Shown here: in pieces, positions 1,236 to 43,492 of the stretch | Layout of the letters: each line of letters begins with the position of its first letter | How positions within the stretch are numbered: the first letter of the stretch is position 1 | Virus record (IMG/VR): IMGVR_UViG_3300028373_000196 | Direction: 5' to 3' (one strand) | DNA: 64,000 nt | DNA from: an uncultured virus (IMG/VR IMGVR_UViG_3300028373_000196) | Taxonomy: Duplodnaviria > Heunggongvirae > Uroviricota > Caudoviricetes | Translations under genes and position numbers: made by a program | Notes under the pieces: generated by a model | The model's input: only the letters and a program-made list of their open reading frames with translations | Database searches by the model: none | Told to the model about the DNA's origin: nothing

Positions 1236-1236
1236 C

Positions 1237-1659
1237 ATGAGAGTAGGTATTACGTTTTCAACTTTTGATTTGTTGCATGCCGGACACATTGGTATGTTGC
1301 GCGAAGCTAAAGACAATTGTGATTATTTGATTGTAGGGTTGCAAACCGATCCTACAATCGACCGGCCTGAAACAAAAAATAAACCAGTGCAAACGCTGGT
1401 CGAAAGATATGCACAACTCAACGCAATAAAGTTTGTTGATGAAATTGTTCCTTATCAAACTGAAAGAGACTTAATAGACATACTAGAACTATTTCAACTG
1501 GATGTACGATTCCTAGGAGATGAGTACAAAGACAAAAGCTTTAGTGGCAAGTACCAATGTGAAAGCCGAGGTATACAATTGCACTTTAACAAACGCAATC
1601 ATAGATTTAGTACCAGCAACTTGCGAGAGCGAGTAACAGCAGCGGAGATGACCAAATGA
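1237..1659 (+). CDS. Cytidylyltransferase (TagD/glycerol-3-phosphate CTase-like)
   Basis: FDLLHAGH HxGH motif; LIVGL; R..FSTS C-terminal motif. Confidence 0.85.
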   Translation: MRVGITFSTFDLLHAGHIGMLREAKDNCDYLIVGLQTDPTIDRPETKNKPVQTLVERYAQLNAIKFVDEIVPYQTERDLIDILELFQLDVRFLGDEYKDKSFSGKYQCESRGIQLHFNKRNHRFSTSNLRERVTAAEMTK

Positions 1660-23782: not shown

Positions 23783-24401
23783 ATTTTGTTTGAATTCCAG
23801 TTCCGTGTAATTGACTGCTTTTGAAGATCAATCCCTTCCCGGGAGTTTGCACCCATGAACTTCCAGTTAGTCCGTGATAAAAATTATGTACAAACGGCAA
23901 ATCGTCCTTTATACTTTCGTTGACAGGCTGGTCAGTTAGATAATTAACTCCAACAGTATCACATGGTCGACGGTCAGTATAACAAATACTTTTGATATGA
24001 TCGTTATCTTTTTTACTGCTAACTAAATCACTTTCAAGAAGAGAAGTGTGACGTTTTTGTTCGACACCGTTAACTTGCCACTCACATCCTGATTGGTCAA
24101 ACTCTTGATCAAACACAATAAATTTCTGTTGGGTGTCTAATACGTATATAGGAACATTTAGATTATATATAGCTTCTGAATTATATCTGTCTACGTGTAG
24201 AGGAATCGTTTCATCATGTGCATAGATGTAGGCGGTGCTAACAGTGTTTAGATTTAATAGTTTTTTAAATGCGGTTTCTAGAAGATCTGAATTTACTTTT
24301 GTGTAAAATGGAAACTCTCCTAATGTTCTATTGCCCAAATTATTTATAACATGGGCGTATAAGACATCAACAGTTTCAAGTGGTATATCTAATTCAATCA
24401 T
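23727..24401 (-). CDS. Fe(II)/2OG oxygenase-like, paralogue B
   Basis: HVD...H triad. Shares QKFIVFDQ, RPCDT, YHGLTG, TPGK and KIGC with paralogue A. Confidence 0.6.
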   Translation of the reverse strand: MIELDIPLETVDVLYAHVINNLGNRTLGEFPFYTKVNSDLLETAFKKLLNLNTVSTAYIYAHDETIPLHVDRYNSEAIYNLNVPIYVLDTQQKFIVFDQEFDQSGCEWQVNGVEQKRHTSLLESDLVSSKKDNDHIKSICYTDRRPCDTVGVNYLTDQPVNESIKDDLPFVHNFYHGLTGSSWVQTPGKGLIFKSSQLHGTGIQTKFKIGCVLMLKSKDCLLNQ

Positions 24402-25036
24402 AGGTTCTCTAAATCGCAGGTGCCGTCTAAGCTAAACATTAGTGCAATACGAGGACTACTACTCATGTTGATCACAGCATGTGGATATCCAATGTTTAAG
24501 AAGTATGCATTGCCGTTTTCAAGATTATATGCTTCAAGCTTGTCGTCACGACGAAAGAGATTTACTGCTTGTTTATCACCATAGATAGGTACTATACATC
24601 TCACAGCATAACTTACATCGTAGTCGACGTGAAATGGTATAGTTTTGCCTGGAGCAAGTTTGGTGATACGTACACGACTAGCAGGCGCCTTACACTGCTG
24701 TATAACGCTCTGTATATAGCTGTTAGTATACTCGGCAGTTGGGATGTTGTAAAGATGCTCTTCTCTGCGTCTTAGTCGCTCTTTGATGCTTGAAGCATGT
24801 GGCAAAACCTCACTTGGCATAGTAAGGTTAATTTGTTCAAAGTTGTCATAAACATCCTTAACCAAGTCTTCGTGATTCATGCACAGTCCAGGGTTGGCTG
24901 TTCGCACGTCTACAAACTTGTCAGCCAGGAAATCACATTCTTTTCTTAATTCAGTTAGGTCAATATTTAAACCAAGGTTTGCTAAACTGGGTAATTGATG
25001 TTTATTCATAATTTTGTTTCCATTTGTTAAAGACAA
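24398..25036 (-). CDS. Asp/Asn beta-hydroxylase-like Fe/2OG oxygenase
   Basis: RVRITKLAPG.TIPFHVD...PHAVIN...PRIAL. The true start may be 25009 (MNKHQ). Confidence 0.75.
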   Translation of the reverse strand: MSLTNGNKIMNKHQLPSLANLGLNIDLTELRKECDFLADKFVDVRTANPGLCMNHEDLVKDVYDNFEQINLTMPSEVLPHASSIKERLRRREEHLYNIPTAEYTNSYIQSVIQQCKAPASRVRITKLAPGKTIPFHVDYDVSYAVRCIVPIYGDKQAVNLFRRDDKLEAYNLENGNAYFLNIGYPHAVINMSSSPRIALMFSLDGTCDLENL

Positions 25037-25616
25037 TCTTGATATCTTCTATATCGTCAAAGTATTTTTCGTAATCTATAAAATCGGATAGTTTGTAGTA
25101 TTTTTTACTTACAGTATCTAAATCTTCATAATAATGTACACTACCAACAGCGCTATCTAGTTGTTCTTTGATTGTAAAAAATTGTTCTAAGCTCTTATTA
25201 TAATCATGATTTGTGCGTGTAATGATATTTAGTTGATTGGGCATGCCATCGGCTTTCATAACGGCTGCTGTTGTCCAGTTTGTACTATCTTGAAATAAAA
25301 AACTTAAAAACCATTTCCACGTATCTCTTCTTTTTAAAATAACGATCTTGTCGTCTTTGTAGAAGTTCTTAAACCACGTGTTGTAATAGTCACCAAGATA
25401 GTTTATATGATGTTTGAATGTATAATCAACTCCGTCTAACTTTTTATCTTCGAGAAATTTTATCTTTTGTTCTAACGTCATCAAAGTCTTTGTTGGATCT
25501 AAGAATTCTTCAATACCGATGTATTTAACGGTTGGTAATGTTAAATTATATGTGTGAATTGATTCGTAAGCATATGACGATCCGGCTCTAGGTGCGCTCA
25601 ATAATACTTGCATCAA
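25002..25616 (-). CDS. Sulfotransferase-like P-loop protein
   Basis: SAPRAGSS (PAPS PSB-like), EEFL, LKRRD...FLS, YYEDL. Confidence 0.55.
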   Translation of the reverse strand: MMQVLLSAPRAGSSYAYESIHTYNLTLPTVKYIGIEEFLDPTKTLMTLEQKIKFLEDKKLDGVDYTFKHHINYLGDYYNTWFKNFYKDDKIVILKRRDTWKWFLSFLFQDSTNWTTAAVMKADGMPNQLNIITRTNHDYNKSLEQFFTIKEQLDSAVGSVHYYEDLDTVSKKYYKLSDFIDYEKYFDDIEDIKIVFNKWKQNYE

Positions 25617-26196
25617 AATCTCTTGTTATAAAATCACTGCTGGGTTGCCAAACGTAAGACGGATTATTCAGTCGTATACTATAAACATACTGCAATATAT
25701 TACCCGTTTTAAACAAAAAGTCTCTTTCTAATTGTAATGTTTGATACCACTCGGTTTTAGTATACTCGGTAAATGTGTTAACTGTCATTCTTCTTTTACG
25801 CTGGTATAATGCATTTATAGCACGTTTGGTAACATCGTGTGTAATATATAATATCTCAAACTGTTTTTTTCTTGCCCACGCAATTTGATAATCGGCCATA
25901 CGCAATCCACAATGTGTAAACCTGTAATCTTTTAAAATATGATATCGACACACTCGTGCAGATATTTTTGGGTCATTGGTATAATGACTGTGTTCTACTA
26001 CACTAATACTGATTAACTTGTCATTAACAAAGCACATCCATGTTTCCGTGGCAGGGTCGTCAGGATTATAGTTTGAGGTGGTAATACTGTTGTTCCCTTC
26101 GAGCCGAGATTGTCGTATAAAAGGATAGATTAAATCCCTGTGTTTGTCGACATCCTCACTGTAAGTCTTAATTAAAATGGGATGTTGTAATTGCAT
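25588..26196 (-). CDS. GNAT acetyltransferase-like protein
   Basis: LISISVV...RYHILKDYR...G.RMADYQI.WAR, a motif A-like segment. Confidence 0.45.
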   Translation of the reverse strand: MQLQHPILIKTYSEDVDKHRDLIYPFIRQSRLEGNNSITTSNYNPDDPATETWMCFVNDKLISISVVEHSHYTNDPKISARVCRYHILKDYRFTHCGLRMADYQIAWARKKQFEILYITHDVTKRAINALYQRKRRMTVNTFTEYTKTEWYQTLQLERDFLFKTGNILQYVYSIRLNNPSYVWQPSSDFITRDFDASIIERT

Positions 26197-26956
26197 ATTC
26201 TTTATACCTTTGATAACTCTTTTCTAGTAGTTCATGCCATAGTGGTAAATCATATACGCCATGAATTACAAGCTGCGCACGATCAGTGAAACTAAATCCT
26301 TTGTCGACACCGTGCTCAAATGTTGCGCCGTCGTACGCAAATGCATTTGTTTCTGGCGGCAACATTGGAAATATTCTAGTAGCACCGCTGTCTTTACTCA
26401 TGTAAAAATGTTCTTTCTTCCAATCAGTTACATTACTCCATCTAAAATGCAAATGACTAGGGGCTTGTGCTTGCAATAATCCTTCTAAGAGTTTTTCTTC
26501 GTCGTAGTGCGGAGGAATTGGAGTAGGTGTTTGTACAAAAAAGATTTGATGAATACTCTTAAAAGGCAATGCTTCTACGTACTCAATAAGATCTGGAAAT
26601 TCATCTCTAGCCCAGTTAAACCATTCGGGATTACTTCCTGGTGTACCACAATTATTAGATTTTAAAAACATCAAGGTTCCTACGTTTTCAGTTTTGTAAA
26701 AATCTTTCTGTTTTTGTTGATCGTTGTAGATCTGTGCAATACGTGCAAGGTTGATGTCTAAATACGGTAAGTCTATTGGTGTCCAAACCATATCTCTATA
26801 TCCAACGTAATCGTTGTGTAAGCTGAGATCTTCCCAATTCGGCCTGTCTGGCCCAGGATTTCCTGGATCATTGTTTAAATATTGCCTATTAGGAATGTTA
26901 TGTTCGTCATATTCTAACTTATGGTATGTTTTTCTAAAGTTATTAGTATTCAACAT
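26168..26956 (-). CDS. Fe/2OG oxygenase-like protein
   Basis: IPPHYD...FEHGVD...R triad. Confidence 0.6.
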   Translation of the reverse strand: MLNTNNFRKTYHKLEYDEHNIPNRQYLNNDPGNPGPDRPNWEDLSLHNDYVGYRDMVWTPIDLPYLDINLARIAQIYNDQQKQKDFYKTENVGTLMFLKSNNCGTPGSNPEWFNWARDEFPDLIEYVEALPFKSIHQIFFVQTPTPIPPHYDEEKLLEGLLQAQAPSHLHFRWSNVTDWKKEHFYMSKDSGATRIFPMLPPETNAFAYDGATFEHGVDKGFSFTDRAQLVIHGVYDLPLWHELLEKSYQRYKEYAITTSHFN

Positions 26957-27494
26957 CTATTATTGTCCTTTTTCCTACTTGTATATTCAAATCTAAGTTT
27001 ATTATATTGCATTTATAATTTTTAGAAAAGTAATCCAGGTCTGTATACTGCAAATCTTCTGTGTTACTGTTGGTTACTTCGTGTACTATTGCATGCTTGG
27101 GTTTATAAAAGTCACATATACGGTTAAACATCTCGTGTGGCTTATTATCGTATATCAGTACACTGCTAAAAACAACTACATCAACATCAAACATAGGACG
27201 AATTAAGTATTTCCACGACCTAACACAAAATTGGTGCTCTGGATACACTGTCATTGCCTTTTCGATAGGTTCTCTGCTGGTATCAAATCCGTAGTAATTA
27301 TACTCGTAATTTGTTAAAAACTTGTTTAATGTGCCAACACGGCAACCAACATCTACTATACTTGTTAATTTGTTGCATTTAATAATATCTGCCATCGTCT
27401 TGTAAATTGGACTAGCATCAGGGCCGTCCAAATATGACATATCGGCAATACGGTATTGCTCATGAAGATTAGCAGTGCTGATAGTCACAAGCAA
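26943..27494 (-). CDS. Class I SAM-dependent methyltransferase
   Basis: IVDVGCRVG, YYGFDTS, DVVVFSSVLIY. The start may be MSYLD (about 27440). Confidence 0.75.
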   Translation of the reverse strand: MLVTISTANLHEQYRIADMSYLDGPDASPIYKTMADIIKCNKLTSIVDVGCRVGTLNKFLTNYEYNYYGFDTSREPIEKAMTVYPEHQFCVRSWKYLIRPMFDVDVVVFSSVLIYDNKPHEMFNRICDFYKPKHAIVHEVTNSNTEDLQYTDLDYFSKNYKCNIINLDLNIQVGKRTIIDVEY

Positions 27495-28266
27495 CCCTCC
27501 AGAGTAAGCGGTTTCTGTCTAGAACAGGAGTTCTTCGATGCAATGTAGTAAACTGATCCATCATAAGCAGATCACCTTTTTTAAATATATGGTGATACAT
27601 GTGCCTAGACTTAAATATGTTTGGTTGTAACTTATCAATCATTTGTCGATGATCGATTTTTGTTTTTCCTTCCCATGCACCTACAATAAAGTGATACGGA
27701 AAGTAAAAATAATATTTGCCAGTATGAGGATGTATACCCACTAAATCACGTATGCTACCTTTATTCTTTTCCATGAATTCTAGTTCAGGATCGCCTTCAT
27801 CTAAATTATACATGGTGTTATTTTGAAATTTTATTCGAATCTTAATACTTTTCCAATACTCCTGTTCGTCTTTGCTCATATCGTAGAACGGGTCGCTCGT
27901 ATTGCAGACACTCAATGTGGTATTAACATCTTCTTCTATACAATATAACGAAATTAATATCTTGTCAATTTGATGTCTGCTGTTACCGTTACTGTGCCAT
28001 CCTAGCTCGGTGTCACCAAACATACCGACCTTATTACCATCGGTGTCTTTTTTTCCAGTTACTAGAAATATTTCAGGATGGTTCTTTGAATTCATAAACA
28101 AGTTAGGAGTTTCGCACTCTCCAAACTGTTTCATTATGTCAACATATGTCTGCTCGGTCAGTTTCTGGTCATAAAATAATGCAAATCCAGTTGTTTGAAT
28201 AGTGTGTGCTAGTTTACTAGGGCATAACGTTGTTACGTCCTCGCTAGTTTTATATGGTGCTATCAA
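27469..28266 (-). CDS. TauD/TfdA family dioxygenase
   Basis: FG.TELGWHSN, GDLLMMDQFTTLHRR, R.LWR. Confidence 0.8.
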   Translation of the reverse strand: MIAPYKTSEDVTTLCPSKLAHTIQTTGFALFYDQKLTEQTYVDIMKQFGECETPNLFMNSKNHPEIFLVTGKKDTDGNKVGMFGDTELGWHSNGNSRHQIDKILISLYCIEEDVNTTLSVCNTSDPFYDMSKDEQEYWKSIKIRIKFQNNTMYNLDEGDPELEFMEKNKGSIRDLVGIHPHTGKYYFYFPYHFIVGAWEGKTKIDHRQMIDKLQPNIFKSRHMYHHIFKKGDLLMMDQFTTLHRRTPVLDRNRLLWRVACDYQHC

Positions 28267-29038
28267 GGTATTGTTCCTTTATTAAGTCGGCTATGCATAA
28301 CCGGTTGGTTTGATTTCTTTTAAATTTGTTGTATATTGGGTTATCTGATGATGCTAACCATATTACATCACTTGATATTAAATCTAATTCAGTACATACT
28401 GTATCTTGATAGGGCTTAAGAGTGTTATAAACCAAGTCAATCGGTATAGTTTCAATTAATCTTTCGCCTAGGCCCATGCTGTAGTAATTATAATATTTTG
28501 CATTTACATTTAATGGTTCTAAACATCGATCTGGAGTTCTACTCCAGTAATAGCCAATTCGGTAGTTACGCAAGCCAAAACATTTACTAAAACTAAAGAA
28601 TACCTTCTCGACGTTGTCAGGTATTTTAAAGTTGGTTACCCTTGTGCTTAACAAGTATGCAAGATCAAGTACAACAGGTTTATCAGTTGGAATGCTACAA
28701 TAATTTCCATTAAAGCTAGCCGGATTTGTCCAATAATGTACGTCGCCAGTCTCCTGGCCACTTACCCATACGTAGTCACCTTTACGAATCTGTATTGCAC
28801 GTTTTTCGTCTGTCATCCAGTAGTTTAATCCTTCTGTGATGCCGTTTAACGGATATAAATATTCAAATCCACTTAAATCACAGTACGGTTTTAAATATTC
28901 AGATATGTTACTAGAAAAGACACTAACCTCGTCATGTTTTGTTAATGAAAAGTCATCAACAACATTAACTATTTCTTTAATAGGAAAACTACGTATTGCC
29001 ATACTTTGCTGCATAAGCTGTGCGATTCTGTCATTCAT
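28250..29038 (-). CDS. PLP-dependent aminotransferase-like (truncated fold type I)
   Basis: GITEG, TNP...G, VLDLAY, SFSK.FGL...RIG. Confidence 0.7.
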   Translation of the reverse strand: MNDRIAQLMQQSMAIRSFPIKEIVNVVDDFSLTKHDEVSVFSSNISEYLKPYCDLSGFEYLYPLNGITEGLNYWMTDEKRAIQIRKGDYVWVSGQETGDVHYWTNPASFNGNYCSIPTDKPVVLDLAYLLSTRVTNFKIPDNVEKVFFSFSKCFGLRNYRIGYYWSRTPDRCLEPLNVNAKYYNYYSMGLGERLIETIPIDLVYNTLKPYQDTVCTELDLISSDVIWLASSDNPIYNKFKRNQTNRLCIADLIKEQYLDSTI

Positions 29039-29682
29039 ATTACTTTGAATATTCTCTGTGCTATTAATTGCTGTGCTACCCAGCCCCCGGTGTCGTATTT
29101 GTGTAACCGTATTTTTCTAAAATTATTATGGTGCTCTAAATGATATCCTTCGCCTGCTATTAACAAATTCAGCCAAGCATTATTTGTTGGGCCATCTTTG
29201 TGTCCTAGTGTGTTAAGTAAGCCAAATCCTAGTTTAGCATGAACAAAGGGCATTAGTGCAAATGCAACAAAAAACTTAATCCCAATTAACAAAGACACAA
29301 TCCAAACAACTATAATAATCTTAAACCAATGCTTGTGGCAGAATACTAACATAGAGTTCTGATACAAGTCCTTTGCATACTTAATTGGAATACGAGGAAT
29401 GTTCCACGTAGTACTTAACACTTTCCAGAATCCAATATGCTTAGGAGAGTGCGGGTCGTGTTCGGTGTCAGCATGCGCATGGTGTAATCGATGACTAGCT
29501 ATCCATCCAATTGGCGATTTTATAACAACAACCATTAACATTGCCAGTCCAATTGCTTCAAACCATTTTGGTACTGCAAATTGTCTGTGACAATAATATC
29601 GATGTAGCAGAATACTTGCTGCCCAGTGAGATATAATAGTTCCCCATAATAGACCAAGGAGTATAACATAAATCCAATCCAT
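29035..29682 (-). CDS. Membrane fatty-acid desaturase (delta-9-like)
   Basis: His boxes HRYYCH, HRLHH and HLEHH; DPHSP; GEGYH; hydrophobic helices. Confidence 0.88.
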   Translation of the reverse strand: MDWIYVILLGLLWGTIISHWAASILLHRYYCHRQFAVPKWFEAIGLAMLMVVVIKSPIGWIASHRLHHAHADTEHDPHSPKHIGFWKVLSTTWNIPRIPIKYAKDLYQNSMLVFCHKHWFKIIIVVWIVSLLIGIKFFVAFALMPFVHAKLGFGLLNTLGHKDGPTNNAWLNLLIAGEGYHLEHHNNFRKIRLHKYDTGGWVAQQLIAQRIFKVI

Positions 29683-30398
29683 TATATGTTTCTCACAATG
29701 TCAATACTATCTTGCCACGTCTTTGTATTACTTTCAAAATTAATATTACAAATCACCCGATGTTTTGTTCCAGTATTAATTGCTTCATGCCACTGCTTGA
29801 CATTCCACAATACCGGTTTATCAACTAGCGCATATCTACAAGCAACATCGTCATTTGTAAACAAGTACTTGTCAGATCCTTTGTTATATTTTTTCCAGTA
29901 ATATTCGCTCCAGTATACTCCGACATTTGGATCTTCTGGAATATAGCCGTCTACGTCTTCATACATAGGCCAACTTGTTAGTGTATTTTCGTCGCAGCCT
30001 GCAACTGGAAATATTAAACTTGCTACACTTGTTTTTGTATGGTGCCTGTGTCCAAAAAATAAGTGCTCAACTGCTTTGAATTCAGGCTGAGTCGGATCTG
30101 CTTGGAAGAACTTTAGGCTTTGTGTAAAACCGTGTTTGTGCAGGGCTTGTGAAAGTTCTTTATGCTCAATTAAGTCAGAGGTATTAATAACTTGCATAAC
30201 CGGCTTGTCCGGATCATACAAGTTATAATGGTCTTTATAGTTATTGATAAAGTAGTTGGTTTCTGGATGTTGTGTATATATGTTAGGAAGGTGTGCAAAT
30301 ATTTGCTGTATTTGCTCATATATAAATTCTAAGCCGGGCGTCCACTCTAATTCATGTACAAAATCTTTTGCAAGTACTGGATCTGTTAATATTGGCAT
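29682..30398 (-). CDS. Cupin/Fe-2OG oxygenase-like protein
   Basis: HRH...SLIFPV...PVLWNVKQWH.AIN...HR double-stranded beta-helix pattern. Confidence 0.5.
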   Translation of the reverse strand: MPILTDPVLAKDFVHELEWTPGLEFIYEQIQQIFAHLPNIYTQHPETNYFINNYKDHYNLYDPDKPVMQVINTSDLIEHKELSQALHKHGFTQSLKFFQADPTQPEFKAVEHLFFGHRHHTKTSVASLIFPVAGCDENTLTSWPMYEDVDGYIPEDPNVGVYWSEYYWKKYNKGSDKYLFTNDDVACRYALVDKPVLWNVKQWHEAINTGTKHRVICNINFESNTKTWQDSIDIVRNI

Positions 30399-30967
30399 TA
30401 TCGATTTCCTATTATTGTTGCTACTAAATGCGATCGAACACTTTTACTACCGTTGAAGACCGAATGCAAAATAGTAGTATCGGTAAAATACCATTTATTT
30501 TTTTCTAAATGCTTCACTTGATCATCAATTACCATAAAACACCCAGTGTGTGTGTCTATTGGGAAATGCACTCTTGGATGGTAGTCAACATGCCAAGACA
30601 AACATGTCTTGGGATGTAGATTCATTATGCGCACTCTACCTAGGATATACTTATCACTAAGCGCATTGTATACTTTTTCAAAACTTGTATTTATAAATTG
30701 GTCACATAATATTGTAAAGTCGGATTCGTTAAGTATAACTTTATTTACAGGAACGTCAATATTTCCATCTTTGTCAACCGTTGAGTTATCCCAGTCGTAA
30801 TACAAGCTACCGGTTCCTAATAAGTAGTCGGTATTTTTTCCTGGAAGAGTATTTAAACAAATTTGTGAACCATTATTATACTTAATAATGTTGTCATCTA
30901 CTAATTTCGTTAGGTCGGTATGTAAGTCAAAGACCGGTAAGTCAGCAAGTTCAGTGAAATGTTTCAT
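30398..30967 (-). CDS. Asp/Asn beta-hydroxylase-like Fe/2OG oxygenase
   Basis: GRVRIM.L.PKTCLSWHVD..PRVH.PI...HSVFNG...R.HL. Start MKHF follows the ATAAATA motif. Confidence 0.78.
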   Translation of the reverse strand: MKHFTELADLPVFDLHTDLTKLVDDNIIKYNNGSQICLNTLPGKNTDYLLGTGSLYYDWDNSTVDKDGNIDVPVNKVILNESDFTILCDQFINTSFEKVYNALSDKYILGRVRIMNLHPKTCLSWHVDYHPRVHFPIDTHTGCFMVIDDQVKHLEKNKWYFTDTTILHSVFNGSKSVRSHLVATIIGNR

Positions 30968-30980
30968 ATTAGTATTTATG

Positions 30981-32351
30981 TTAAGGCAGTTTACGTTTTG
31001 GAATTTTAGAATCGGCACTGCTTACACAACTGTCTGTTATGCACGGCATTGCTTTGTTAAATAATTTAAACCCAGTTTCGACATTACCGAGCGGCACATC
31101 ATGACATGAGTAGCTTCGTTTAACCGATCCGTCGGGTTCACGTATTATAATTCCTTGATACCCAGCGTTGCAACTCCATCCTTTGAATTTATTGAAGTTA
31201 AAAGCATTGAATCGTTCAGCTTGATCCATGTACCATTTTGTACCGTCCTTGTCTTTGAGTTCTATCTGCATATGCCACGGAACACTTGCGTCGTTGTTGC
31301 CTACTACTTCTTTTGGTATTTCAAAAGTTGCTTTGGGACGATTAGCCCATGTGCGTTTAGATTCTGTATAGGCGCGCTGCGGCATGCCGTTGTGCAATGC
31401 CTTGAGTATTTCTTCGGAATAACCGTCTACAATTCGAGAAGCAGTTGGGTCACTCATCGGCTTGAGCGTAACATTAATTCCTTGCTCATGAAAGAATAAT
31501 GCGTTATTCCAATCTTTGTCGAACCATTCAGGAACCATAACCATATTAATGGTAACTTGTACATCGTGTTCTTGGCAATATATCAACTTGTCTGCAAAGT
31601 CTTGCATTTTTGCAGTCGTGTCCAAGTGCTCTGTGTGCAAACTTGCAGTAATACTTGCGCGATGGAATGACTTTGTAATTTCTACATACTCCTCAAACCA
31701 GCTCATAGGGCGCGAGCAATTGCTGGTCATGTGTGTTGATGTGTAATTTGTAGACCCGACGTCAGCAGCAAGGTGTTTGAGCATGTCAAGGTACCCTGGG
31801 TGGAACGTGGGTTCGCCACCGCTCAACGAAAAGTGAAAGCTGTTAAAGCCATTTTCTCTAGCTTGTCGTTTGATCTCGTCAATTGTTTTTAAACAAAGCT
31901 CGGTTGGCCTGTGATCTTTTTTATCAGATCGAGCGTAAGGCCAGCAATCATATTGTTCAAACAGTGTCGTTAATACTGTCCCGGAACGTATCCAGCTGCA
32001 TGTTACCATGCAGATCAGACTATATCATCATCCCAGTTGTGGGATGCTCCCCGTTTCGACTCACATGAGCCTACGTCTTTCGACTAGTCGTTGAACCTTC
32101 TTTGTGTAACAAAGCTTGGCTGCTGATTGCCCAAAAGCATGGGGTTTCCAGCAATTAAAGGAGTTTTCGACCATTGTTACCAATGGAAGTCGCATTGATG
32201 TTTACGAACAGCGGTAGTTACAGAAGCGGCCCAAGATCCAGCTCACTGTAAATAGATCTCTGTATAGCATTGTTCGTTGCCCAACACTTACTATATCATC
32301 AAATGGTATTTTTGTGAAGTCATATTCACTCCATTTTAAATTATTGTTCAT
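30981..32351 (-). CDS. Radical SAM protein, spliced: join(32351..32204, 31948..30981), 371 aa
   Basis: Exon 1 is MNNNLKW...WILGRFCNYRCS+T; exon 2 is AT-TGC-TGG.... Joining them gives CNYRCSYCW (CxxxCxxC), then SGGEP and C-terminal Cys motifs. Confidence 0.9.
31949..32203 (-). ncRNA. Group I self-splicing intron, 255 nt, no ORF
   Basis: P AATTGCTGGAAA, Q AATCAGCAG, R GTTCAACGACTA, S ATGATATAGTCT. The 5' exon ends in U and the intron ends in G. The IGS CAATGCGA pairs with exon TCGT|ATTG. Confidence 0.93.
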
Positions 32352-32409
32352 ATATTTGCCATCCTTTGCATGATTTGGTTTGCTGTAATAAATCTTCTGT
32401 CATACGTTT

Positions 32410-32438
32410 AGTATAACACCATTGTAATATTATGTCAA
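32410..32438 (-). promoter_or_regulatory. sigma70-type promoter
   Basis: TTGACA-17 nt-TATACT upstream of the intron-containing gene. Confidence 0.7.
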
Positions 32439-32447
32439 CTATTTACT

Positions 32448-33389
32448 TTATAGCTGCTGTTTGGTAAAATGGTCACGATTATTTTGCTTGCACGCCTGTA
32501 TACATTTGGGTATCTTGTTATCACTATCCCACGAATTCATAATATCAGTAAATACCTTTCCGTGTAGTGCCTGCTTAACAGACACATTTGCCAAGTTAAT
32601 ATCATTTTTGTAATCGTTGTCAACTAGTATTTCTTCAAATCTATCCTTTGATTTTTCTGTTACTGAAAACTCCATCATCTTACTGTTGAGATGACAGCAC
32701 GGAATGACATTACCCATGTGATTAACAAATATACGCTTTTGGCCACTGTATTTGCAAGATATACATGGTGACTCATCAGCCTCTATTTTTTTGTGCGTTA
32801 TACCACTAGTATCAGGTCGATGACTAATAATGGTTTTAAAATCTTTAAACCCTTCGTCCTTGGCCAGTTGTTTTGCTATATGAGTTTGGTGCTGATTGTG
32901 TTCAAATTCAATATATTGCCAAACTGATTGGCCGCCTGCTGCAATAAACGATCTATAATTGGTTTGTACCTTTTTAAAACTACTGCCTTCTCGGTAGATC
33001 TCACTTGTTTCGTCAGCTCCGTCGATCCCCCAAGTAACTCTGTGACTAGCAGGTAATATGCCTGCTAGCTTCGCCCACCAACCAGCAGTTCGTAAACTAC
33101 CATTGGTAGCAATATTAATGTGTACGTTCCAGTCTGCAAAATGTTTTATAATTTCAAAGAAATCAGGATGTGTAGTAGGTTCGTCTACACTGCCGCAGAA
33201 ATTAATAATCTGCATGTTTGGAAACATTGATTTTTGAAATCTAGTTCTTATGGTGTCCAAGTCTAAGTATGTTTTGTTTAATATTTTGTCTGCATGATCG
33301 GACAATACACGAAAGCATCCTTTGCATTGTATGTTACAATAACTTGTAAGTTCGATGTCTATCCACTCTAATGTATCAGTTGACCACAT
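32448..33389 (-). CDS. Radical SAM protein with Twitch/SPASM-like C-terminus
   Basis: CNIQCKGC, TNG, C...IPCC...CIQAC. Confidence 0.88.
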   Translation of the reverse strand: MWSTDTLEWIDIELTSYCNIQCKGCFRVLSDHADKILNKTYLDLDTIRTRFQKSMFPNMQIINFCGSVDEPTTHPDFFEIIKHFADWNVHINIATNGSLRTAGWWAKLAGILPASHRVTWGIDGADETSEIYREGSSFKKVQTNYRSFIAAGGQSVWQYIEFEHNQHQTHIAKQLAKDEGFKDFKTIISHRPDTSGITHKKIEADESPCISCKYSGQKRIFVNHMGNVIPCCHLNSKMMEFSVTEKSKDRFEEILVDNDYKNDINLANVSVKQALHGKVFTDIMNSWDSDNKIPKCIQACKQNNRDHFTKQQL

Positions 33390-34654
33390 TAGTTATACTC
33401 CGTAGGGATTATTGGTGCGGATTTTGGTACAGGTGCTTCGCTATTTTTAAAAACGTCCATATTTACATGACCAGATAACACAGTTTTATAATTCTCAGGA
33501 TATGCACTCTTTGGAGCGCATAACCCGCAACCACAAGTGTGTTTAGGACAAACAATTGTGGGCATGGTTTTGGTTTCTAGTTGATGTCTTAGTTGTGCAA
33601 GAATAGCTGCGCCTTCGCTTATTTTGCCAATAGGGCCGCGTGTTTGGTCAAATTTTGCTTGACATGTTTGGTGATGAAAGACTTGATCGGTTTGCTGCTC
33701 AAGATGAAGAAAGAACCAATTGACGCTGCAATGCCACCCCTTGAAGTTTCTAAAGTCTACAAAGGTACTTTTCTTAGATTCTGTTTTGCTGCTCAAGCAC
33801 ATTTCTCTACTACCACAACACGGGCGGCCGATTGCCCATCCGTCTTTTTTAGATGCAGGCTTTTTGACTTGGACTTCTTCTAATTCCTCTTCCACACCTT
33901 CTATTTCTACTTCTTCCATTAACTTAGGCAGCTTATCAGTTGATTTGTGCTCTTTGTTTAGTTCTGCATTACGATACTTCCAGTAATTTTTCATAAAGTC
34001 TAGTTGTTCGTCAGTGTACTGGTGTGCAAAGTTGTCTCGACTGCCGGCTTCTTCGCCGATGATTCTAGGTACATATTTTACACCAGCGTCTTCTAGAAAA
34101 TTACAAAGATCCTTGCATTCGTCAAAATGTTGTGCGTGAAACATTACGTTTACATTCATTGTAAAGTTATGCTGTGGGCCAGATTTGTGAAATTGCATAA
34201 TTCGATCTCGTACTTGCTTTTTGAGCTTTAGGTCGCTTTCTGCATGATAACTCACAGTGATGTGCTGCAAATTTTCCATTATTCTTGTAGCCATTTTTGC
34301 GCCCATTGCACCATTACTGGTTAATGAAAATCTAGCTCGCCATTTATCTTTATACTTATTAGCATGCTCTTCTTTTAAGTATTGAATAAATGTTATAAAG
34401 TTAGGGTTTACTGTGGGTTCTCCGCCTGTAAAACTAATAGTGGATGATTTGTGATCTCTGTGTTCCATGTATGTATCAATATATTCAAACACAAAGTTGG
34501 CGTTATTTTTTAATTCATCTAATGTAGCATGGGCACTAAAGTTGTCATGTCGATAAACGGGGCAATAACTACAATCATAATTACAGCGTCGCCCTAAATC
34601 CCATGTAACCTGAAAAGCATTTCCAGTTAGCAAGTCTACTGTATCAAAACTCAT
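33389..34654 (-). CDS. Radical SAM protein
   Basis: CNYDCSYC, TGGEP, Cys-rich C-terminus (CC...C...CPKHTCGCGLCAPK). Confidence 0.9.
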   Translation of the reverse strand: MSFDTVDLLTGNAFQVTWDLGRRCNYDCSYCPVYRHDNFSAHATLDELKNNANFVFEYIDTYMEHRDHKSSTISFTGGEPTVNPNFITFIQYLKEEHANKYKDKWRARFSLTSNGAMGAKMATRIMENLQHITVSYHAESDLKLKKQVRDRIMQFHKSGPQHNFTMNVNVMFHAQHFDECKDLCNFLEDAGVKYVPRIIGEEAGSRDNFAHQYTDEQLDFMKNYWKYRNAELNKEHKSTDKLPKLMEEVEIEGVEEELEEVQVKKPASKKDGWAIGRPCCGSREMCLSSKTESKKSTFVDFRNFKGWHCSVNWFFLHLEQQTDQVFHHQTCQAKFDQTRGPIGKISEGAAILAQLRHQLETKTMPTIVCPKHTCGCGLCAPKSAYPENYKTVLSGHVNMDVFKNSEAPVPKSAPIIPTEYN

Positions 34655-36057
34655 TTAAATATATCCTTCATTTCTGGAAATGTTTCTGCAAATTTATTGC
34701 CGCGTTGGGTGTCACAGAGTTTTAAGAATTCTTGCATCTCTGGAAGGCGACGACTCCAGTCTTCACTTTCCATAAACTGCAACATACCGTTGAGGCGCTG
34801 TATACCGTACTCTGCACTGCGCCATTGTTCGTAATCAACTTTACCTTTATGCCACTCAGGAATACCTAACTCCCAATTGGCTTCCCACCACGGATACCAA
34901 GCTTCGTATTTTTCTCTGCATTCTTGTTTGAACCATGCGGGCAATGATTTAACATTCAAGTGTGCAGGCCAATATACAAAATGCTGACTAATTCCGCCTG
35001 CACCGAACGGCCACATATTAATTTTCTTAAACCCTTGTTCTAATTTCCATTGTATGAAATCTGGAATATAGTATATGTTCAACGCCTGCACTGCACATGC
35101 AATAGTAACTTCGACATTGTCGCTGGTCTGTGTATCAAGAATGTGAAATACTTCTTCTTGTCGTGTCCATTTGCTAGGATATCGAATGTAGTCGTTCATT
35201 TCTTTTATACTATCTATCGAGTAATGAAAGCGTACAATTTTGAATTCCTTCCATAGCTCAAATAAATCAGGTCTCCACTCAACTCCATTTGAGTTATAAC
35301 GTAACTCGAGATTCTTAGCATAGCCCATTTTGATAGCGTGCTCGAGTATTTCATAATGTTCCTCAATAATCAAGCTTTCGCCACCTGCGAAATAAATTTG
35401 TTGCATGGTTGCCATTTGCTCGTAAAACTGTGTCCAAAACGTTGGATTTTGTTTGTGCCAGTTGTAGCTCGATCCGTTTGTGCTTCCTTTATCTTGCCAC
35501 TGCATAATCTCTTTGAGACTTTCATTTTTAACGGCTGGGAATATGGACTTATAATCTTTTATCCATCCGCTACTGTCATGGGGACTACACATAACACATG
35601 CCAACTGGCATTTAGTGCCAAATCGTAAGTCTATATATGCTAGATTTGGCGGAACTTCGCCGTCCTCTGTAGTGTCTGCTAGTATCTTCTCAAGGTCGAC
35701 TCGTTTGCTCCAGTAATTGGTTTCCCACTGCCGTTTACTACGATGTCCAGCTGCTTCTTCTTTGAAGCATTTTAAACAACTAGGAGGCTTTTCTCCGTTG
35801 AGCATTTGCTTGCGGACGTTTTTCATATAGTTGCTGTTCCAAGCAGTCTTAAAATCACTTACATTTAAGTTGTTTGGCTTACCGTCGTCTGTTTTAAGAA
35901 TTCCCACTTGCCCACCGTGTTCTGTGTCGTTTGTTGGGCCAACACTACTAGCGTTGGCAGTGCAACAAACTCTGAGACTTCCGTCAGGGCGGGTAGATAA
36001 ATGCATCCAAGGTAAGATACAAAATGTTTCTGACGGAGGAGTAATTTTATCTGTCAT
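34651..36057 (-). CDS. Radical SAM protein with N-terminal Twitch/SPASM domain
   Basis: FCILPW...VCC...CLKC N-terminal domain, then CQLACVMC, AGGES, YNSN. Confidence 0.9.
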   Translation of the reverse strand: MTDKITPPSETFCILPWMHLSTRPDGSLRVCCTANASSVGPTNDTEHGGQVGILKTDDGKPNNLNVSDFKTAWNSNYMKNVRKQMLNGEKPPSCLKCFKEEAAGHRSKRQWETNYWSKRVDLEKILADTTEDGEVPPNLAYIDLRFGTKCQLACVMCSPHDSSGWIKDYKSIFPAVKNESLKEIMQWQDKGSTNGSSYNWHKQNPTFWTQFYEQMATMQQIYFAGGESLIIEEHYEILEHAIKMGYAKNLELRYNSNGVEWRPDLFELWKEFKIVRFHYSIDSIKEMNDYIRYPSKWTRQEEVFHILDTQTSDNVEVTIACAVQALNIYYIPDFIQWKLEQGFKKINMWPFGAGGISQHFVYWPAHLNVKSLPAWFKQECREKYEAWYPWWEANWELGIPEWHKGKVDYEQWRSAEYGIQRLNGMLQFMESEDWSRRLPEMQEFLKLCDTQRGNKFAETFPEMKDIFK

Positions 36058-36907
36058 GTAACCCTACTTTTTCTATTGCCCAGTTGCGCTCGACACACCA
36101 AAAACACTTACCACATTCTGGTATGTGTGCGTCAGGATTTTGAGTGTACCATGTAAAGTTCATTCCTGATGACAGGTAAGTATTGCTATCGCCTTCGCAA
36201 CTTCTAGTGATATACAATAATTCGAGTATATCGTGATTCACGTATTGCCGAATTACCCAATCTTTTTCTGTTAATCGAAGAGGTGTAAGACTCCATGATG
36301 TAGTATCGTCTGCTATATATGCAAGAGAGTTTAGAGATTGTTCGATGTTGTCTCGATTCATCATCCTATCGAAAATTTCATACCCTACCGTTGGATTTTT
36401 AGTAGTAGCATTGTAACATGCATTATACTGATGTGTCACTGCTAGATACTTATTAAACGATCCAACCATAATCTGATCCATTGATCGGCCATTATGAATA
36501 TTGCCAATTGCGCCGTGTTCGAGCTCAGGAGGCAAATAAGTCACTACTTGATGTGTAATTATGTCAGGAAATCTATTTTTGAGCCACTTATAAACGTTAG
36601 TCGATACAGTAGATTGCCACGGTCGGGTAAACCAATTGCGTACAAATGTAATTATCTCAATTTTGCAGTTGTAATTATTATCTTTAATGGTTGTGGCCAT
36701 CAAAAATGCCATTATGGCACTATCGGCGCCGCCGCTGAGATTGATTCCCACCTTTGTCCATTCTGGATTCATCGGAATTACAACATTATCAAAGTTGTGG
36801 GCCTTTAATCCAATTTTGTTAAGTGTATCAGGGGTTGCACCAGTAGCGGCATTTGCCCATGCATACGAACTGTTGTACTCAGCTGAATTGTATAATGATT
36901 GATTCAT
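36047..36907 (-). CDS. QueC-like PP-loop ATPase
   Basis: LSGGADSA PP-loop; TRSC...CGKCFWC.ER Zn motif as in QueC. Confidence 0.7.
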   Translation of the reverse strand: MNQSLYNSAEYNSSYAWANAATGATPDTLNKIGLKAHNFDNVVIPMNPEWTKVGINLSGGADSAIMAFLMATTIKDNNYNCKIEIITFVRNWFTRPWQSTVSTNVYKWLKNRFPDIITHQVVTYLPPELEHGAIGNIHNGRSMDQIMVGSFNKYLAVTHQYNACYNATTKNPTVGYEIFDRMMNRDNIEQSLNSLAYIADDTTSWSLTPLRLTEKDWVIRQYVNHDILELLYITRSCEGDSNTYLSSGMNFTWYTQNPDAHIPECGKCFWCVERNWAIEKVGLHDR

Positions 36908-36986
36908 GTTGTTATTTTCCTACTATATTAGTATATATTTATATACGTATATTTCTGCTGCTGGTAATCTGAACTACAACACAAAA

Positions 36987-38060
36987 TTATTGTTTTATGG
37001 TTATTTCATTATGATATGCTTTGTTATGAGCGCAAGTTAGTATACACCGTGACAAATGCTGTGCGTGGGCCGGATTCCAACTTTGTTCTAACACTTCAGA
37101 AAACCAATCATGAGATAATACGGCGTCTATATCCTGATCCTTGACACTGTTCCATCCGTTTGTGTATTTTGATAACTTGTCTGTAATTTGATCTCTATTT
37201 TTAAACGTGCTGTCCCAAAGAAAGCAACATGGCCAAACTTCAAGCTGGGCACTAATAAATATTTCGGCTTCGTGTACATATTTGCAAGTGATCGACGAAA
37301 CCACTCGTTGTGTTTGGTAGCTATCGTTATTTTTATAGTTTTCAATAAATTCAGCAAGTTCATAAACCTGTTGTTTTTTAGTATGTTCTTTTTTGCCAGA
37401 GGTTGTAATTACACTTTGTTCAGTAACTAGTTTTTTTGTATTAGCATCTCGTTTCTTTATAATAGAAACCCAGTCGTGGTAACTGTTTCTCATTCCAGTT
37501 CTAGTTGCAAACTTGAACCCCAGCGACTTAGCATGCGCCTCAGCAGCAGGCAACTCATACTCATTGTGATCAAATACAATAAATATCCAAGTTGCAGCAG
37601 AGTGGCCAGCGCCGCCGGCTCGGTATGCTTGCATATTACGGTCGATTACTTTAAAGTTGGTGTTTACCCTATAGACGTGATTGGTTTCTCTGTGGCCGTC
37701 GATGCAAAAGTTGATCTCGACATTCTTTGTTTCTTTGCTCAACTCGCCAAGTCGGTGCCACCACGTTGCTGTTTGATAACCGCCATTGGTGCTCAATTGA
37801 CAAAATCCGCCGTTGGTGGACAGATATTCTACCATATCGACACATTCTATGTTGAGTGCCGGGTCGCCAAGCACTCCGCAGAATTTAAATTGCTTGCCTG
37901 CAATATATTCTCGCGAAGGAAACAATCGCTTTATATCAGCAAGTCCAAACCCAGTGACTAAAAATTTACCAAAATTCTGCGTTCTTGCACAACCAGGGCA
38001 AGCTGCATTACAATCACTTGTAATTTCTAATTCGACTTTTTTGATGTTTAATAAGTTCAT
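36987..38060 (-). CDS. Radical SAM protein with Twitch-like C-terminus
   Basis: CNAACPGC, CGVLGDP, STNGG, WPCC, CILTC. Confidence 0.9.
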   Translation of the reverse strand: MNLLNIKKVELEITSDCNAACPGCARTQNFGKFLVTGFGLADIKRLFPSREYIAGKQFKFCGVLGDPALNIECVDMVEYLSTNGGFCQLSTNGGYQTATWWHRLGELSKETKNVEINFCIDGHRETNHVYRVNTNFKVIDRNMQAYRAGGAGHSAATWIFIVFDHNEYELPAAEAHAKSLGFKFATRTGMRNSYHDWVSIIKKRDANTKKLVTEQSVITTSGKKEHTKKQQVYELAEFIENYKNNDSYQTQRVVSSITCKYVHEAEIFISAQLEVWPCCFLWDSTFKNRDQITDKLSKYTNGWNSVKDQDIDAVLSHDWFSEVLEQSWNPAHAQHLSRCILTCAHNKAYHNEITIKQ

Positions 38061-38066
38061 ATTTGG

Positions 38067-38603
38067 TTACTTAACTGAAGTCCTTGCATAATATGTTTGT
38101 AGATTGGACATTAAATTTATCTGAGTCATATAATACTTTTCAGTATATTCTAAATTTTGTACAAATGTAAACGATTCAGGATCTATTATCTTAACTTCGT
38201 TCGAAGTTGTTAGCACAATATTGCTTAGACTTAAATCACAGTTTACAAAAAATGTGTTGTTTTTTAACTTTTTAGATTCCTGCATTGATTGACTCCAAGT
38301 ATTATTTATAGTGATAATTATATCACAAATTAAGTCTTTGGTAATCAAGTGATAGTATTCTTCTCTTTTCAAAACACTTTCAATAGTATCAACAATATCT
38401 AAAAATTCCATGGTATATGTTTCATGGTCAACCAACCCAAGTACCTTTACCAATGCAGGATTAGATTTTGACAAGTTAGAGTAATGTTTTAACCATTGTT
38501 GATTAATTGGCTGGAAGTTGGTGTTGCGTACTGTTTTAAAGACAATATCATCTTTAAACTCGATCTTCGAGTATCTGTCTATCATTGGTATTATTTCTCT
38601 CAA
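38067..38603 (-). CDS. Kinase-like (APH/PKL fold) protein
   Basis: VFK, YTMEFL, CDLSLSNIV (catalytic loop DxxxxN), KIIDP. Confidence 0.6.
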   Translation of the reverse strand: MREIIPMIDRYSKIEFKDDIVFKTVRNTNFQPINQQWLKHYSNLSKSNPALVKVLGLVDHETYTMEFLDIVDTIESVLKREEYYHLITKDLICDIIITINNTWSQSMQESKKLKNNTFFVNCDLSLSNIVLTTSNEVKIIDPESFTFVQNLEYTEKYYMTQINLMSNLQTYYARTSVK

Positions 38604-38651
38604 TACTTATATTAGTCTATTGTAGCACACATTATTTCAATTGTCTAGTAT

Positions 38652-39254
38652 TTAGGCAAAGTATTTGTTTATTAAATATTCTGCAAAAAGTTTTTGACTT
38701 TTGGGCCCAGGGTGAGAGTTGTCTAGCGCTCTGTCTACTTTAAAAGATTGCAGGTTTTTATCTGACATAGTAATTGACCGGTCAATGTTTAAAGTTTTTG
38801 GATGTGCGTCTACCGGTAATATATTGTATGTTTTAATACCGAGTGATCGTAATTTTAAGTTGATGTAATTGATGTACACACAACGCATGATAGTTGAATC
38901 CCAATCGTTGTGTAAAAATTTGTAATATGGTTTTGATGGCTTGTCATACTTCCACGTTCCTATCTGAACGTTAGTGTGCTGTTTTATAATGCAATGACGG
39001 TCATTATGACTCCACTGTATTACGCAAATATCAGACAAATCGAAATTAGTATTGTCAGCGATGTGCATAATGTGTTTATCGCCGGCGCCAGGAACAGATA
39101 AGTTTACCAGTTTGCGCCTTAAATGAGTGGCAACTATCTGAGCAAAGCCCAACTTACTAGGTTCATCCAGCGGATGAACACCGTCGGAGTGTATACAATC
39201 GGCCAATCCGTGTCCAAAAGTGTATGAACATCCAATTGTTATTAACTTATTCAT
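38652..39254 (-). CDS. SGNH/GDSL-like hydrolase, paralogue 1
   Basis: GCSYT (GDS-like), NLSVPG, QWS, DNSHPG (DxxH). Confidence 0.6.
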   Translation of the reverse strand: MNKLITIGCSYTFGHGLADCIHSDGVHPLDEPSKLGFAQIVATHLRRKLVNLSVPGAGDKHIMHIADNTNFDLSDICVIQWSHNDRHCIIKQHTNVQIGTWKYDKPSKPYYKFLHNDWDSTIMRCVYINYINLKLRSLGIKTYNILPVDAHPKTLNIDRSITMSDKNLQSFKVDRALDNSHPGPKSQKLFAEYLINKYFA

Positions 39255-39277
39255 ACAAGTATTTATGCCAAGAATTA

Positions 39278-39496
39278 TTACTTAAACTGCGCCGAAAATG
39301 GATCAAACTCGGCGCCGCACTTCATACTGCATACTTTTAATTTTCCGTCGGCGCAGCTGGGTTTGTTCCAACTTGCTTCTATGTTTTCAAATATGCCAGT
39401 ATCAAACACAGCTTTTAACCCGTGTATCTTGGCATTGACTGCATCCTTGCCGCCGGCTTCATCAATAAAGTCCCATACTTGTTCTACTTTGGGATC
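39278..39496 (-). repeat. 219-nt diverged duplicate of 43493..43711
   Basis: 64/72 aa identical, with many synonymous differences. Confidence 0.9.
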
Positions 39497-40429
39497 ATTG
39501 GTCCAGCACAACACATCAGTATCTTCTTGTAGGAAGTCGCAGCCCTTGCAGTAAGAAATACTGTCAAAGTCACCTGCATTGTGTTTTTCTCTTAGTTCGG
39601 TATAAAGATTGCCTGTCCAAATTTCTTCAAAGGTTTGACTCGAAAGATGTCCTAGAACACTTTTACTTTCGCTCGGCGGTCCTAGGACCTGACAACACGG
39701 AGTTACTGCTGCTGTCATACCGTTAACTCCTCCGGCACGAACTGTTAGTTCCTCAGCAGACGGGCGGCCACAACTTCGTTTTTTACCAGAGCGAATGTAT
39801 TCCGGAGAATGATTTCCACTCCAGTTGTGCATTTTCCAGATATAAGAAATTACGCCTGTGGGAATAATAAAATTATTTTTATATTGTTCAGCTTCCCATT
39901 CTGCATTTTTAGGGTCTAAGATTAGATGATAACTCTGAACAGAACATTTAGAATTTACTTCTTTCACGTATGCGGCTGCTTCAGTGGTATTTGACTTTAT
40001 TAAATCCCAGTTATCTTTACTCATCCATTTCTGGTACAATTCTCGATTGTACCCTATTACAGAAAATCTAATAAGCGACAATCCGGCATCAATACAGTCT
40101 TTCATGTACTGCCCTGTAAATTTAGCACCGTTGCAATATAAGTAAGACTTTAAGCCACGTTTAGTACATGCTGCGATATACTCATGGAGGTCTTTTGCCA
40201 TAGTCGGTTCGCCTGATCCCTCAAGATTAATCACTGGATATCCGTATTTAGGAGTAATTTGATCAAGAATACTTTCAAATTGCCGCAATGGCATTTTTTT
40301 TAAAAATTCTTTTTCTCTGCCTTCGGCGGATCCCTGAGGACACATTTGACAAGTATAATTACAACCTCCAAAGACTTCAATTACTGCGCGTTTTAAATTT
40401 AGATGTTCAAGGTCAATACTCATACTCAA
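39278..40429 (-). CDS. Radical SAM/SPASM protein with an appended foreign C-terminal module
   Basis: CNYTCQMC, GSGEP, SPASM C..PCC..CKGC. The last 72 aa match the end of 43493..44572. Confidence 0.88.
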   Translation of the reverse strand: MSMSIDLEHLNLKRAVIEVFGGCNYTCQMCPQGSAEGREKEFLKKMPLRQFESILDQITPKYGYPVINLEGSGEPTMAKDLHEYIAACTKRGLKSYLYCNGAKFTGQYMKDCIDAGLSLIRFSVIGYNRELYQKWMSKDNWDLIKSNTTEAAAYVKEVNSKCSVQSYHLILDPKNAEWEAEQYKNNFIIPTGVISYIWKMHNWSGNHSPEYIRSGKKRSCGRPSAEELTVRAGGVNGMTAAVTPCCQVLGPPSESKSVLGHLSSQTFEEIWTGNLYTELREKHNAGDFDSISYCKGCDFLQEDTDVLCWTNDPKVEQVWDFIDEAGGKDAVNAKIHGLKAVFDTGIFENIEASWNKPSCADGKLKVCSMKCGAEFDPFSAQFK

Positions 40430-40441
40430 TATATACCAATG

Positions 40442-43484: not shown

Positions 43485-43492
43485 AATAATAC

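Follow-up and report, generated by a model that had tools for sequence, protein, structure and literature searches.

Group I introns of phages are textbook elements, and their hosts are mostly genes of DNA and nucleotide metabolism. The introns of T4, among them that of nrdB, are assigned to subgroup IA2. Here we analyze a 64-kb window (the whole stretch studied, 64,000 nt; G000:C1:135439-199438 within the 251,140-bp virus record of an uncultured phage), in which a radical SAM gene on the minus strand is interrupted by a 255-nt, IA-like group I intron (31949..32203). The element is a functional-looking intron of the T4 nrdB (IA) type, free of an open reading frame (ORF) for a protein of its own, and it splits the Tyr codon of CNYRCS-Y-CW behind that codon's first base; splicing at the RNA level is predicted.

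Collaborative homing denotes the combination of an ORF-less intron with a neighboring free-standing endonuclease (PMC3984707, in excerpt; also the abstracts PMC6083498 and PMC2790892). In the excerpts of the literature on group I introns with radical SAM that were covered (including PMC3322345, PMC3468402, and PMC2795772), no intron in a radical SAM gene was found. The intron family itself is ordinary and common in phages; what is new is the radical SAM host gene and the insertion site.

Results

Splice junctions and reading frame

Exon 1 (32204..32351; minus strand, as are all parts of the gene) starts with the ATG at 32351, comprises 49 codons plus the first base of a Tyr codon, includes the first two Cys of the CX3CX2C motif, and aligns to residues 1-49 of the homologues. 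Its 3′ end at 32204 reads ...TGT AAC TAC CGC TGT TCG T. The intron begins at 32203 with AAACATCAATGCGA and ends with ...AATATG, the terminal G lying at 31949, just before exon 2. Exon 2 (30981..31948) begins AT TGC TGG at 31948; it completes the Tyr codon with AT and supplies the third cluster Cys, the remaining radical SAM barrel, a Cys-rich C-terminal part, and the stop codon. Excision of 32203..31949 fused TGT TCG T to AT TGC TGG, giving CNYRCSYCW with the Tyr codon split T|AT. The intron was identified by Rfam, by our own model R1, and by covariation, and its boundaries were taken from homologues. A reading of this DNA made earlier from the letters only (the sequence-only reading) had placed the intron at 31949..32203 with this same junction; both were exact, and the homologues demand the same junction. 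Alternative 3′ splice sites were ruled out, the motif and the frame being restored only by 31949/31948.

The sequence-only reading had also reported an immediate stop (TAA) in unspliced RNA and an N-terminus missed by the ORF track, and both were recovered. Without splicing, the frame ran into TCG TAA, and exon 1 stood as a separate 49-aa ORF (32202..32351) ending CNYRCS, apart from the ORF of exon 2. Because exon 1 holds two of the three cluster Cys and the frame ends at once when unspliced, the enzyme is expected to depend on splicing; the earlier claim that its activity does so is thus supported by the anatomy of the gene. Within the intron, the sole ORF of at least 40 aa was a 44-aa frame that crosses the catalytic core, and an intron-encoded protein was rejected.

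All radical SAM and polymerase introns inspected (the window at 32204..32202, L006, L170, L050, and position 1510..1512 of L002, a stretch with the same genome's DNA polymerase gene) were in phase 1 and started with AA. Consequently, each 5′ splice site is straddled by an in-frame stop, the split codon U|AA.

Structure of the intron and covariation among its relatives

The insert matched the Rfam group I model RF00028 (Intron_gpI), which the sequence-only reading had proposed as a check, with 100.2 bits (gathering cut-off 50, E 9.4e-25) over model positions 1-253 of 253. It was the only gathering-level Rfam match in the 64-kb window, and the alignment displayed the conserved P, Q, R, and S stretches. 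The helix set was P1-P2-P3-P4-P5-P6-P6a-P7-P7.1-P7.2-P8-P9-P9.1-P9.2. In the internal guide sequence, CAATGCGA (32197..32190, minus strand), GCGA pairs with UCGU of exon 1 (P1), with a U-G pair at the splice site, and CAAU pairs with AUUG of exon 2 (P10). The P7 strands GACTA (32089..32085) and TAGTC (32022..32018) enclose P7.1, P7.2, P3′, and P8 (32018..32089, minus strand), and P7 crosses P3 in a pseudoknot, as it should in group I introns. Between P7 and P3′ lie P7.1 (GTC-GAAA-GAC) and P7.2 (GGCTC-ATGT-GAGTC; together 32058..32084, minus strand), a mark of subgroup IA that is named as its criterion in the excerpted PMC3984707. GNRA loops were found on P2 (GUAA), P7.1 (GAAA), and P9 (GUAA). 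The fold energy of the insert was −75.5 kcal/mol (z −3.48), and none of 200 shuffles folded as well.

Every element that the sequence-only reading had listed was therefore present (P/Q/R/S, the P7 pair, GNRA hairpins, two extra hairpins between P7 and P3, the terminal G, and a guide with U-G). Its IA-like assignment is likewise backed: membership in subgroup IA is supported by P7.1/P7.2 and by DNA homology to the T4 nrdB intron.

Covariance model R1 was built from four related introns with the structure mapped by hand; when run on 85 sources, it gave 118 matches, which formed 96 distinct rows. The window intron scored 291.8 bits over exactly 31949..32207, the highest of all sequences. Across the 96 distinct rows, 93.5% of cells were paired, compared with 64.3% after shuffling (0 of 500 shuffles reached the observed value) and 38–42% with slid partners. 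Changes on both sides were found in 65 of the 68 pairs, including those of P1 (5 of 5 pairs), P7.1/P7.2, P9.1, and P9.2. In the P7.1/P7.2 region (helices 9-11), 96–100% of cells were paired, all with double-sided changes. P7 was almost invariant among the relatives and consequently gave no covariation signal. Of the 76 rows scored, 43 had U-G as the splice-site pair and 16 had U-A. The R1 alignment was fitted to its model and so favors the structure of that model; the large number of pair types and the slid controls speak for a real signal.

The radical SAM gene and its uninterrupted homologues

A search with the translation of exon 2 returned 4908 proteins at E ≤ 1e-3. The best 120 homologues were full length and uninterrupted (369–383 aa, 79–88% identity, 98–100% query coverage), in line with the sequence-only reading, which had called the enzyme conserved. 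That reading had also named intron-less homologues as a check on the junction. Alignment A1 combined the two exon translations with 10 full-length homologues picked from the best 120, and all 10 read GRFCNY[RK]CSYCWPYARS unbroken, with exon 1 stopping at CS and exon 2 opening at CW. The exons abut homologue residues 49 and 51, with the one split Tyr codon between them. In a search of IMG/VR viral contigs with homologue P0001, 582 of 590 candidate stretches encoded a relative. The intron-less set consisted of the best 80 of these 582 loci, all uninterrupted, and is biased, since a peptide across the junction was among those used in the search; CNY[KR]CSYCW was contiguous in all 80, and R1 found an intron in none of them. 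A paralogue 1.2 kb upstream in the window also read CNYDCSYC contiguously.

The CX3CX2C motif near the N-terminus was complete only after splicing, and exon 2 alone matched Pfam Radical_SAM (PF04055) with 32.7 bits (cut-off 29.5). No NCBIfam model reached its cut-off for the enzyme (best 42.4 bits vs. 170), exon 2 had no match in PHROGs, and tblastn with exon 2 found nothing in a collection of 50,697 isolate phage records. Megablast of the locus against isolate phages returned only intron-core matches, in three records. The AlphaFold model of P0001 was mediocre (mean pLDDT, the predicted local distance difference test score, 65.7); a fold search with it ranked viperin-type chains first (E 3e-5) and returned only generic radical SAM folds, viperin and MoaA leading, at template modeling scores (TM-scores) of only 0.31–0.37. 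The enzyme belongs to the radical SAM superfamily by its motif and its Pfam match, and the modeled barrel suggests a weak resemblance to the viperin and MoaA folds.

Introns and endonucleases in other alleles of the gene

Four IMG/VR loci matched the window at 100% identity across 5,017 nt and therefore represent the same genotype rather than independent cases. L006 (82% amino acid identity) and L170 (71%) carried an intron at exactly this site (TGT TCG T|AAA...G|AT TGT TGG) with many compensatory changes in the helices; that of L170 scored 225.5 bits with R1. In L050 (49% amino acid identity), a related 244-nt intron interrupted the second Cys codon, 6 nt upstream (CGG T|...G|GT TCT TAT TGC), and its P1 had changed in concert, the guide GCCG fitting the exon CGGU. 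Three radical SAM lineages thus have an intron at the exact window site, and a fourth has one 6 nt upstream. The Ser codon TCG required by P1 was used in 3 of 3 same-site intron alleles vs. 2 of 80 intron-less alleles. Approximately 7 intron-bearing contigs were found vs. 582 protein-encoding stretches; as the scans relied on exact patterns, the number of contigs is a lower bound. Among at least 118 metagenome stretches matching the 3′ junction pattern, only L202, which is the window's own record, encoded the radical SAM protein.

Directly upstream of the interrupted gene, L006 encoded a 195-aa GIY-YIG-like ORF (664..1251; phrog_314, E 1.5e-31; Pfam GIY-YIG 21.5 bits, just below the 22.6 cut-off), and L170 encoded a homologue 66% identical to it (1456..2112). 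In L050, the same position was taken by a different endonuclease-like ORF (phrog_3339, E 4.4e-10). An adjacent free-standing homing endonuclease was therefore seen in 3 of 4 intron-bearing lineages, and homologues of these enzymes adjoined 0 of the 80 intron-less loci. The endonuclease was preceded by truncated duplicates of exon 1, which stopped approximately 26 nt (L006) and 4 nt (L050) short of the insertion sites. I-TevI, an enzyme of the GIY-YIG type, cuts 23–25 nt upstream of its intron site, which would fit the end of the L006 duplicate.

The intron family and a sister intron in the same genome

The best isolate-phage match to the intron was the T4 nrdB/I-TevIII intron (79% identity over 76% of the intron length, E 7e-21); in total, 893 isolate phage records matched the intron, and its 23-nt core was present exactly in 83 IMG/VR stretches. 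Flanking frames were listed for 39 of 48 distinct high-scoring introns, and 41 of those frames were scanned. The flanks encoded family B and family A DNA polymerases, UvsX, class I and class II ribonucleotide reductases, EF-Tu, and DnaB, as well as AAA_24, a minor tail protein, and a Crass-type capsid, and they often held GIY-YIG, HNH, or LAGLIDADG ORFs. The polymerases, ribonucleotide reductases, UvsX, and DnaB of this survey agree with the usual hosts.

A second intron (G000:C1:134616-134830, 92.9 bits; L002 1511..1762) was located approximately 0.6 kb before the window start, where it splits KINLNS|LYGA in the KxxxNSxYG motif of a family B DNA polymerase. This insertion site was occupied in six distinct polymerase loci. 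Like the window intron, the polymerase intron is ORF-less, is in phase 1 with a U|AA stop, and has a 5′ exon ending in TCGT with the guide GCGA; its P2 stem and P9 are identical to those of the window intron, and the P9.2 loop is the same. The two differ in the P10 guide (GUAC vs. CAAU) and in their surroundings, an HNH homing endonuclease ORF (phrog_655, E 8.8e-35) lying approximately 190 nt upstream of the polymerase intron, whereas the window intron has no neighboring endonuclease. In a tree of 18 introns (one row per distinct sequence of at least 174 bits, from the 96 distinct rows), the window intron grouped with the polymerase intron of its own genome as its nearest relative (78% identity, support 82/84), apart from the radical SAM introns of other phages (71–74% identity).

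The polymerase gene itself was fragmented (L002 1..3215, which is G000:C1:133116-136330; L002 from 2324 onward is window 1..892). It was split by the HNH homing endonuclease ORF (L002 131..1324), then by the intron (1511..1762), and then by an intein at YGDTDS|C...HN|S. The N-part ORF of the intein (1762..2292) ended in a stop (Intein_splicing 37.1 bits), and the C-part formed a new ORF (L002 2464.., window 141..). The early stop after the N-intein recurred in L009, L027, and L029, and therefore the intein may be naturally split.

Other members of the family were seen in the contigs surveyed. In a 194-kb IMG/VR contig, a same-family intron (L031 1389..1857, 203.1 bits) interrupted an EF-Tu-like GTPase gene between ...VNIGTIG and HVDHGKT, within the P-loop region. 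Four tandem intron-model matches (49–106 bits) were found within 1.4 kb in L022 (1381..2790), which may be a multi-intron gene or nested introns. One 247-kb contig (L038 and L058) and one 86-kb contig (L062 and L067) had two same-family introns each, approximately 26.7 kb apart. Of each pair, one intron lies in a family B polymerase, within its exonuclease part, and the other in an unidentified gene; the layout resembles that of the window genome.

Promoter and start-codon stub

The best of 15 sigma-70-like sites in 30300..32700 was a promoter-like element upstream of exon 1 (32410..32438, minus strand; TTGACA-17 nt-TATACT, 11 of 12 consensus matches, TG before the −10). Intron-less alleles had the same promoter layout, with the hexamers approximately 6–7 nt before the ATG. 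This promoter-like site is the sole indication that the radical SAM gene may be expressed, as the sequence-only reading had supposed.

Between the promoter and the gene was a start-codon stub, ATGACAGAAGATTTA (32403..32389), read as a 20-codon upstream ORF (32341..32403, minus strand) whose end overlaps the real start. The stub corresponded to the first five codons (MTEDL) of intron-less alleles, was identical in 14 of 15 bases to the gene starts of L134 and L112, and had the same distance to the −10 as in intron-less alleles. It was followed by 36–37 unrelated nt and then by the real start, ATG AAC AAT AAT TTA AAA TGG. The stub is probably a recombination scar from the acquisition of a donor allele, which would leave an L006-like layout minus the endonuclease cassette.

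Neighboring genes

The interrupted gene was part of a long one-strand block (23727..44572, minus strand) with at least seven radical SAM genes (30981-32351, 32448-33389, 33389-34654, 34651-36057, 36987-38060, 39278-40429, and 43493-44572, all on the minus strand). The gene at 34651-36057 was an NF033640 twitch-domain radical SAM gene (417.7 bits). The same block also contained Asp/Asn-hydroxylase-like, TauD-like, and fatty-acid-desaturase-like genes and a UDP-glucose dehydrogenase gene. A QueE-like radical SAM gene on the plus strand (13548..14444; phrog_2076, E 2e-51) hints at 7-deazaguanine DNA modification in the phage.

Discussion

We propose that the gene would be transcribed from the promoter at 32438..32410 and that the RNA would fold and bind guanosine in P7. 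Cleavage would follow the U of UCGU, held by the guide GCGA (P1), and ligation to AUUG, held by CAAU (P10), would restore CX3CX2C; without splicing, translation would halt at U|AA and no enzyme would be made. Because the same UCGU/GCGA pairing fits both sites, the intron may have come into the radical SAM gene from polymerase-type introns of the same phage group. It would then have spread among radical SAM alleles with the free-standing GIY-YIG homing endonuclease encoded just upstream, and in the window lineage the endonuclease would have been lost, leaving the duplicated start stub. We put the probability of this explanation as a whole (a T4-nrdB-type intron, splicing that restores the motif, endonuclease-aided spread, and endonuclease loss) at approximately 0.9; the structure, the boundaries, the homology, and the frame restoration are observed, and we infer the rest from them.

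Several results weigh against this explanation. P1 has only five pairs and P10 only four, which is short though usual in the intron family, and P10 of L170 has a mismatch. The endonuclease association in 3 of 4 lineages comprises few lineages, and two of the endonucleases are homologous, so that it does not amount to three independent events. No endonuclease adjoins the gene in the window or in its four identical copies, and the one GIY-YIG homologue that the 251-kb record contains has 45% identity, limited to the catalytic domain, and lies approximately 70 kb away. The 36-nt spacer after the stub was considered as a remnant of a GIY-YIG 3′ end and was dropped, its score being reached by 1434 and 1365 of 2000 shuffles. 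The spacer being no more endonuclease-like than shuffles, the loss of an endonuclease is suggested by the stub alone. The tree, which used 18 of the 96 rows, has 8 of 15 inner branches open and includes introns with mosaic helices; it does not establish the direction of transfer between polymerase and radical SAM genes. With no endonuclease next to the gene in the window or its copies, we do not class the window as a homing pair, and it is likely the descendant of a collaborative-homing pair. The intron probably spread with the help of an endonuclease, by collaborative homing, and would now be an orphan.

That the intron has decayed and no longer splices, the radical SAM gene being a pseudogene in this phage, is very improbable. 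Splicing is predicted here from DNA, there is no homing endonuclease to maintain the intron, and the 5′ end of the gene is rearranged, with the start stub and the upstream ORF; however, the core helices are all intact and the intron has the top score in its family model (R1 291.8 bits; Rfam 100.2). Moreover, both exons are open, are 79–88% identical to full-length homologues, and have no other lesion, and the Ser codon TCG and the start of exon 2 still fit the guide sequence. The polymerase intron of the same genome might have reverse-spliced at the RNA level into a fortuitous UCGU in the radical SAM mRNA, followed by reverse transcription and recombination, with the endonucleases of the relatives being later and incidental. 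Such reverse splicing can in principle work with 4–6 complementary bases, and the circumstantial case for it is usually made from related introns that occupy different sites (PMC3984707, in excerpt). Both sites end in TCGT and both guides are GCGA, only the P10 guide differing; the nearest relative is the polymerase intron of the same genome; and the related intron 6 nt away uses the matching pair CGGU/GCCG. We nevertheless regard this course as somewhat unlikely. P1 complementarity is needed for splicing by any route of arrival and does not discriminate, the exon-1 duplications that end close to the insertion sites, next to endonuclease genes, speak for DNA breaks, and no reverse transcriptase was seen, none having been specifically searched for.

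The likeness of the radical SAM and polymerase introns could instead stem from later gene conversion between two resident introns, the radical SAM intron being old at its site. The similarity is indeed mosaic: in its P2 stem and throughout P9 the window intron is identical to the polymerase intron of the same genome, the 5′ guide region is like that of L006, P7.2 is like that of L050, and the P9.2 loop is common to all. Three diverged alleles (88, 82, and 71% identical to P0001) also have the intron at the same site. The ratio of approximately 7 intron contigs to 582 protein-encoding stretches fits a recent sporadic gain better, however, and the tree cannot decide. We consider this reading quite unlikely. 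A more far-reaching possibility, tentative and against the odds, is that the stretch encoding CX3CX2C in this enzyme family is a recurrent landing site for T4-nrdB-type introns, which would have reverse-spliced from the same-genome polymerase at two positions 6 nt apart, the one guide suiting UCGU in both genes, and would then have been captured and spread by free-standing GIY-YIG endonucleases. If this were true, the window would represent the final, endonuclease-lost stage of a life cycle, with the earlier stages in L006, L170, and L050.

With an intron in its iron-sulfur motif, an auxiliary radical SAM gene joins the known hosts of these elements and widens their range. Gene callers split the gene and lose its N-terminus, and the enzyme family is therefore under-annotated in intron-bearing phages. 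The alleles would also offer a small natural series in which the movement and loss of ORF-less introns could be studied: intron-less; with intron, endonuclease, and exon duplicate; with intron and scar; with an insertion 6 nt away; and with the sister intron in the polymerase.

Compared with the T4 nrdB intron, the window intron has the same core, including P7.1/P7.2. The host is a radical SAM enzyme here and a ribonucleotide reductase in T4; the T4 intron carries the defective endonuclease gene I-TevIII, whereas the window intron is ORF-less; the match in T4 is broken into two pieces across approximately 540 nt; and the guide sequences are different. Compared with the collaborative-homing systems (the S-PM2 psbA intron with F-CphI, and T4 mobE with the nrdB intron), the window has lost, or never had, its endonuclease. 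The endonuclease of L006 and L170, as judged from its sequence, is GIY-YIG-like rather than Endo VII-like or HNH. In layout, L006, L170, and L050 are like these systems.

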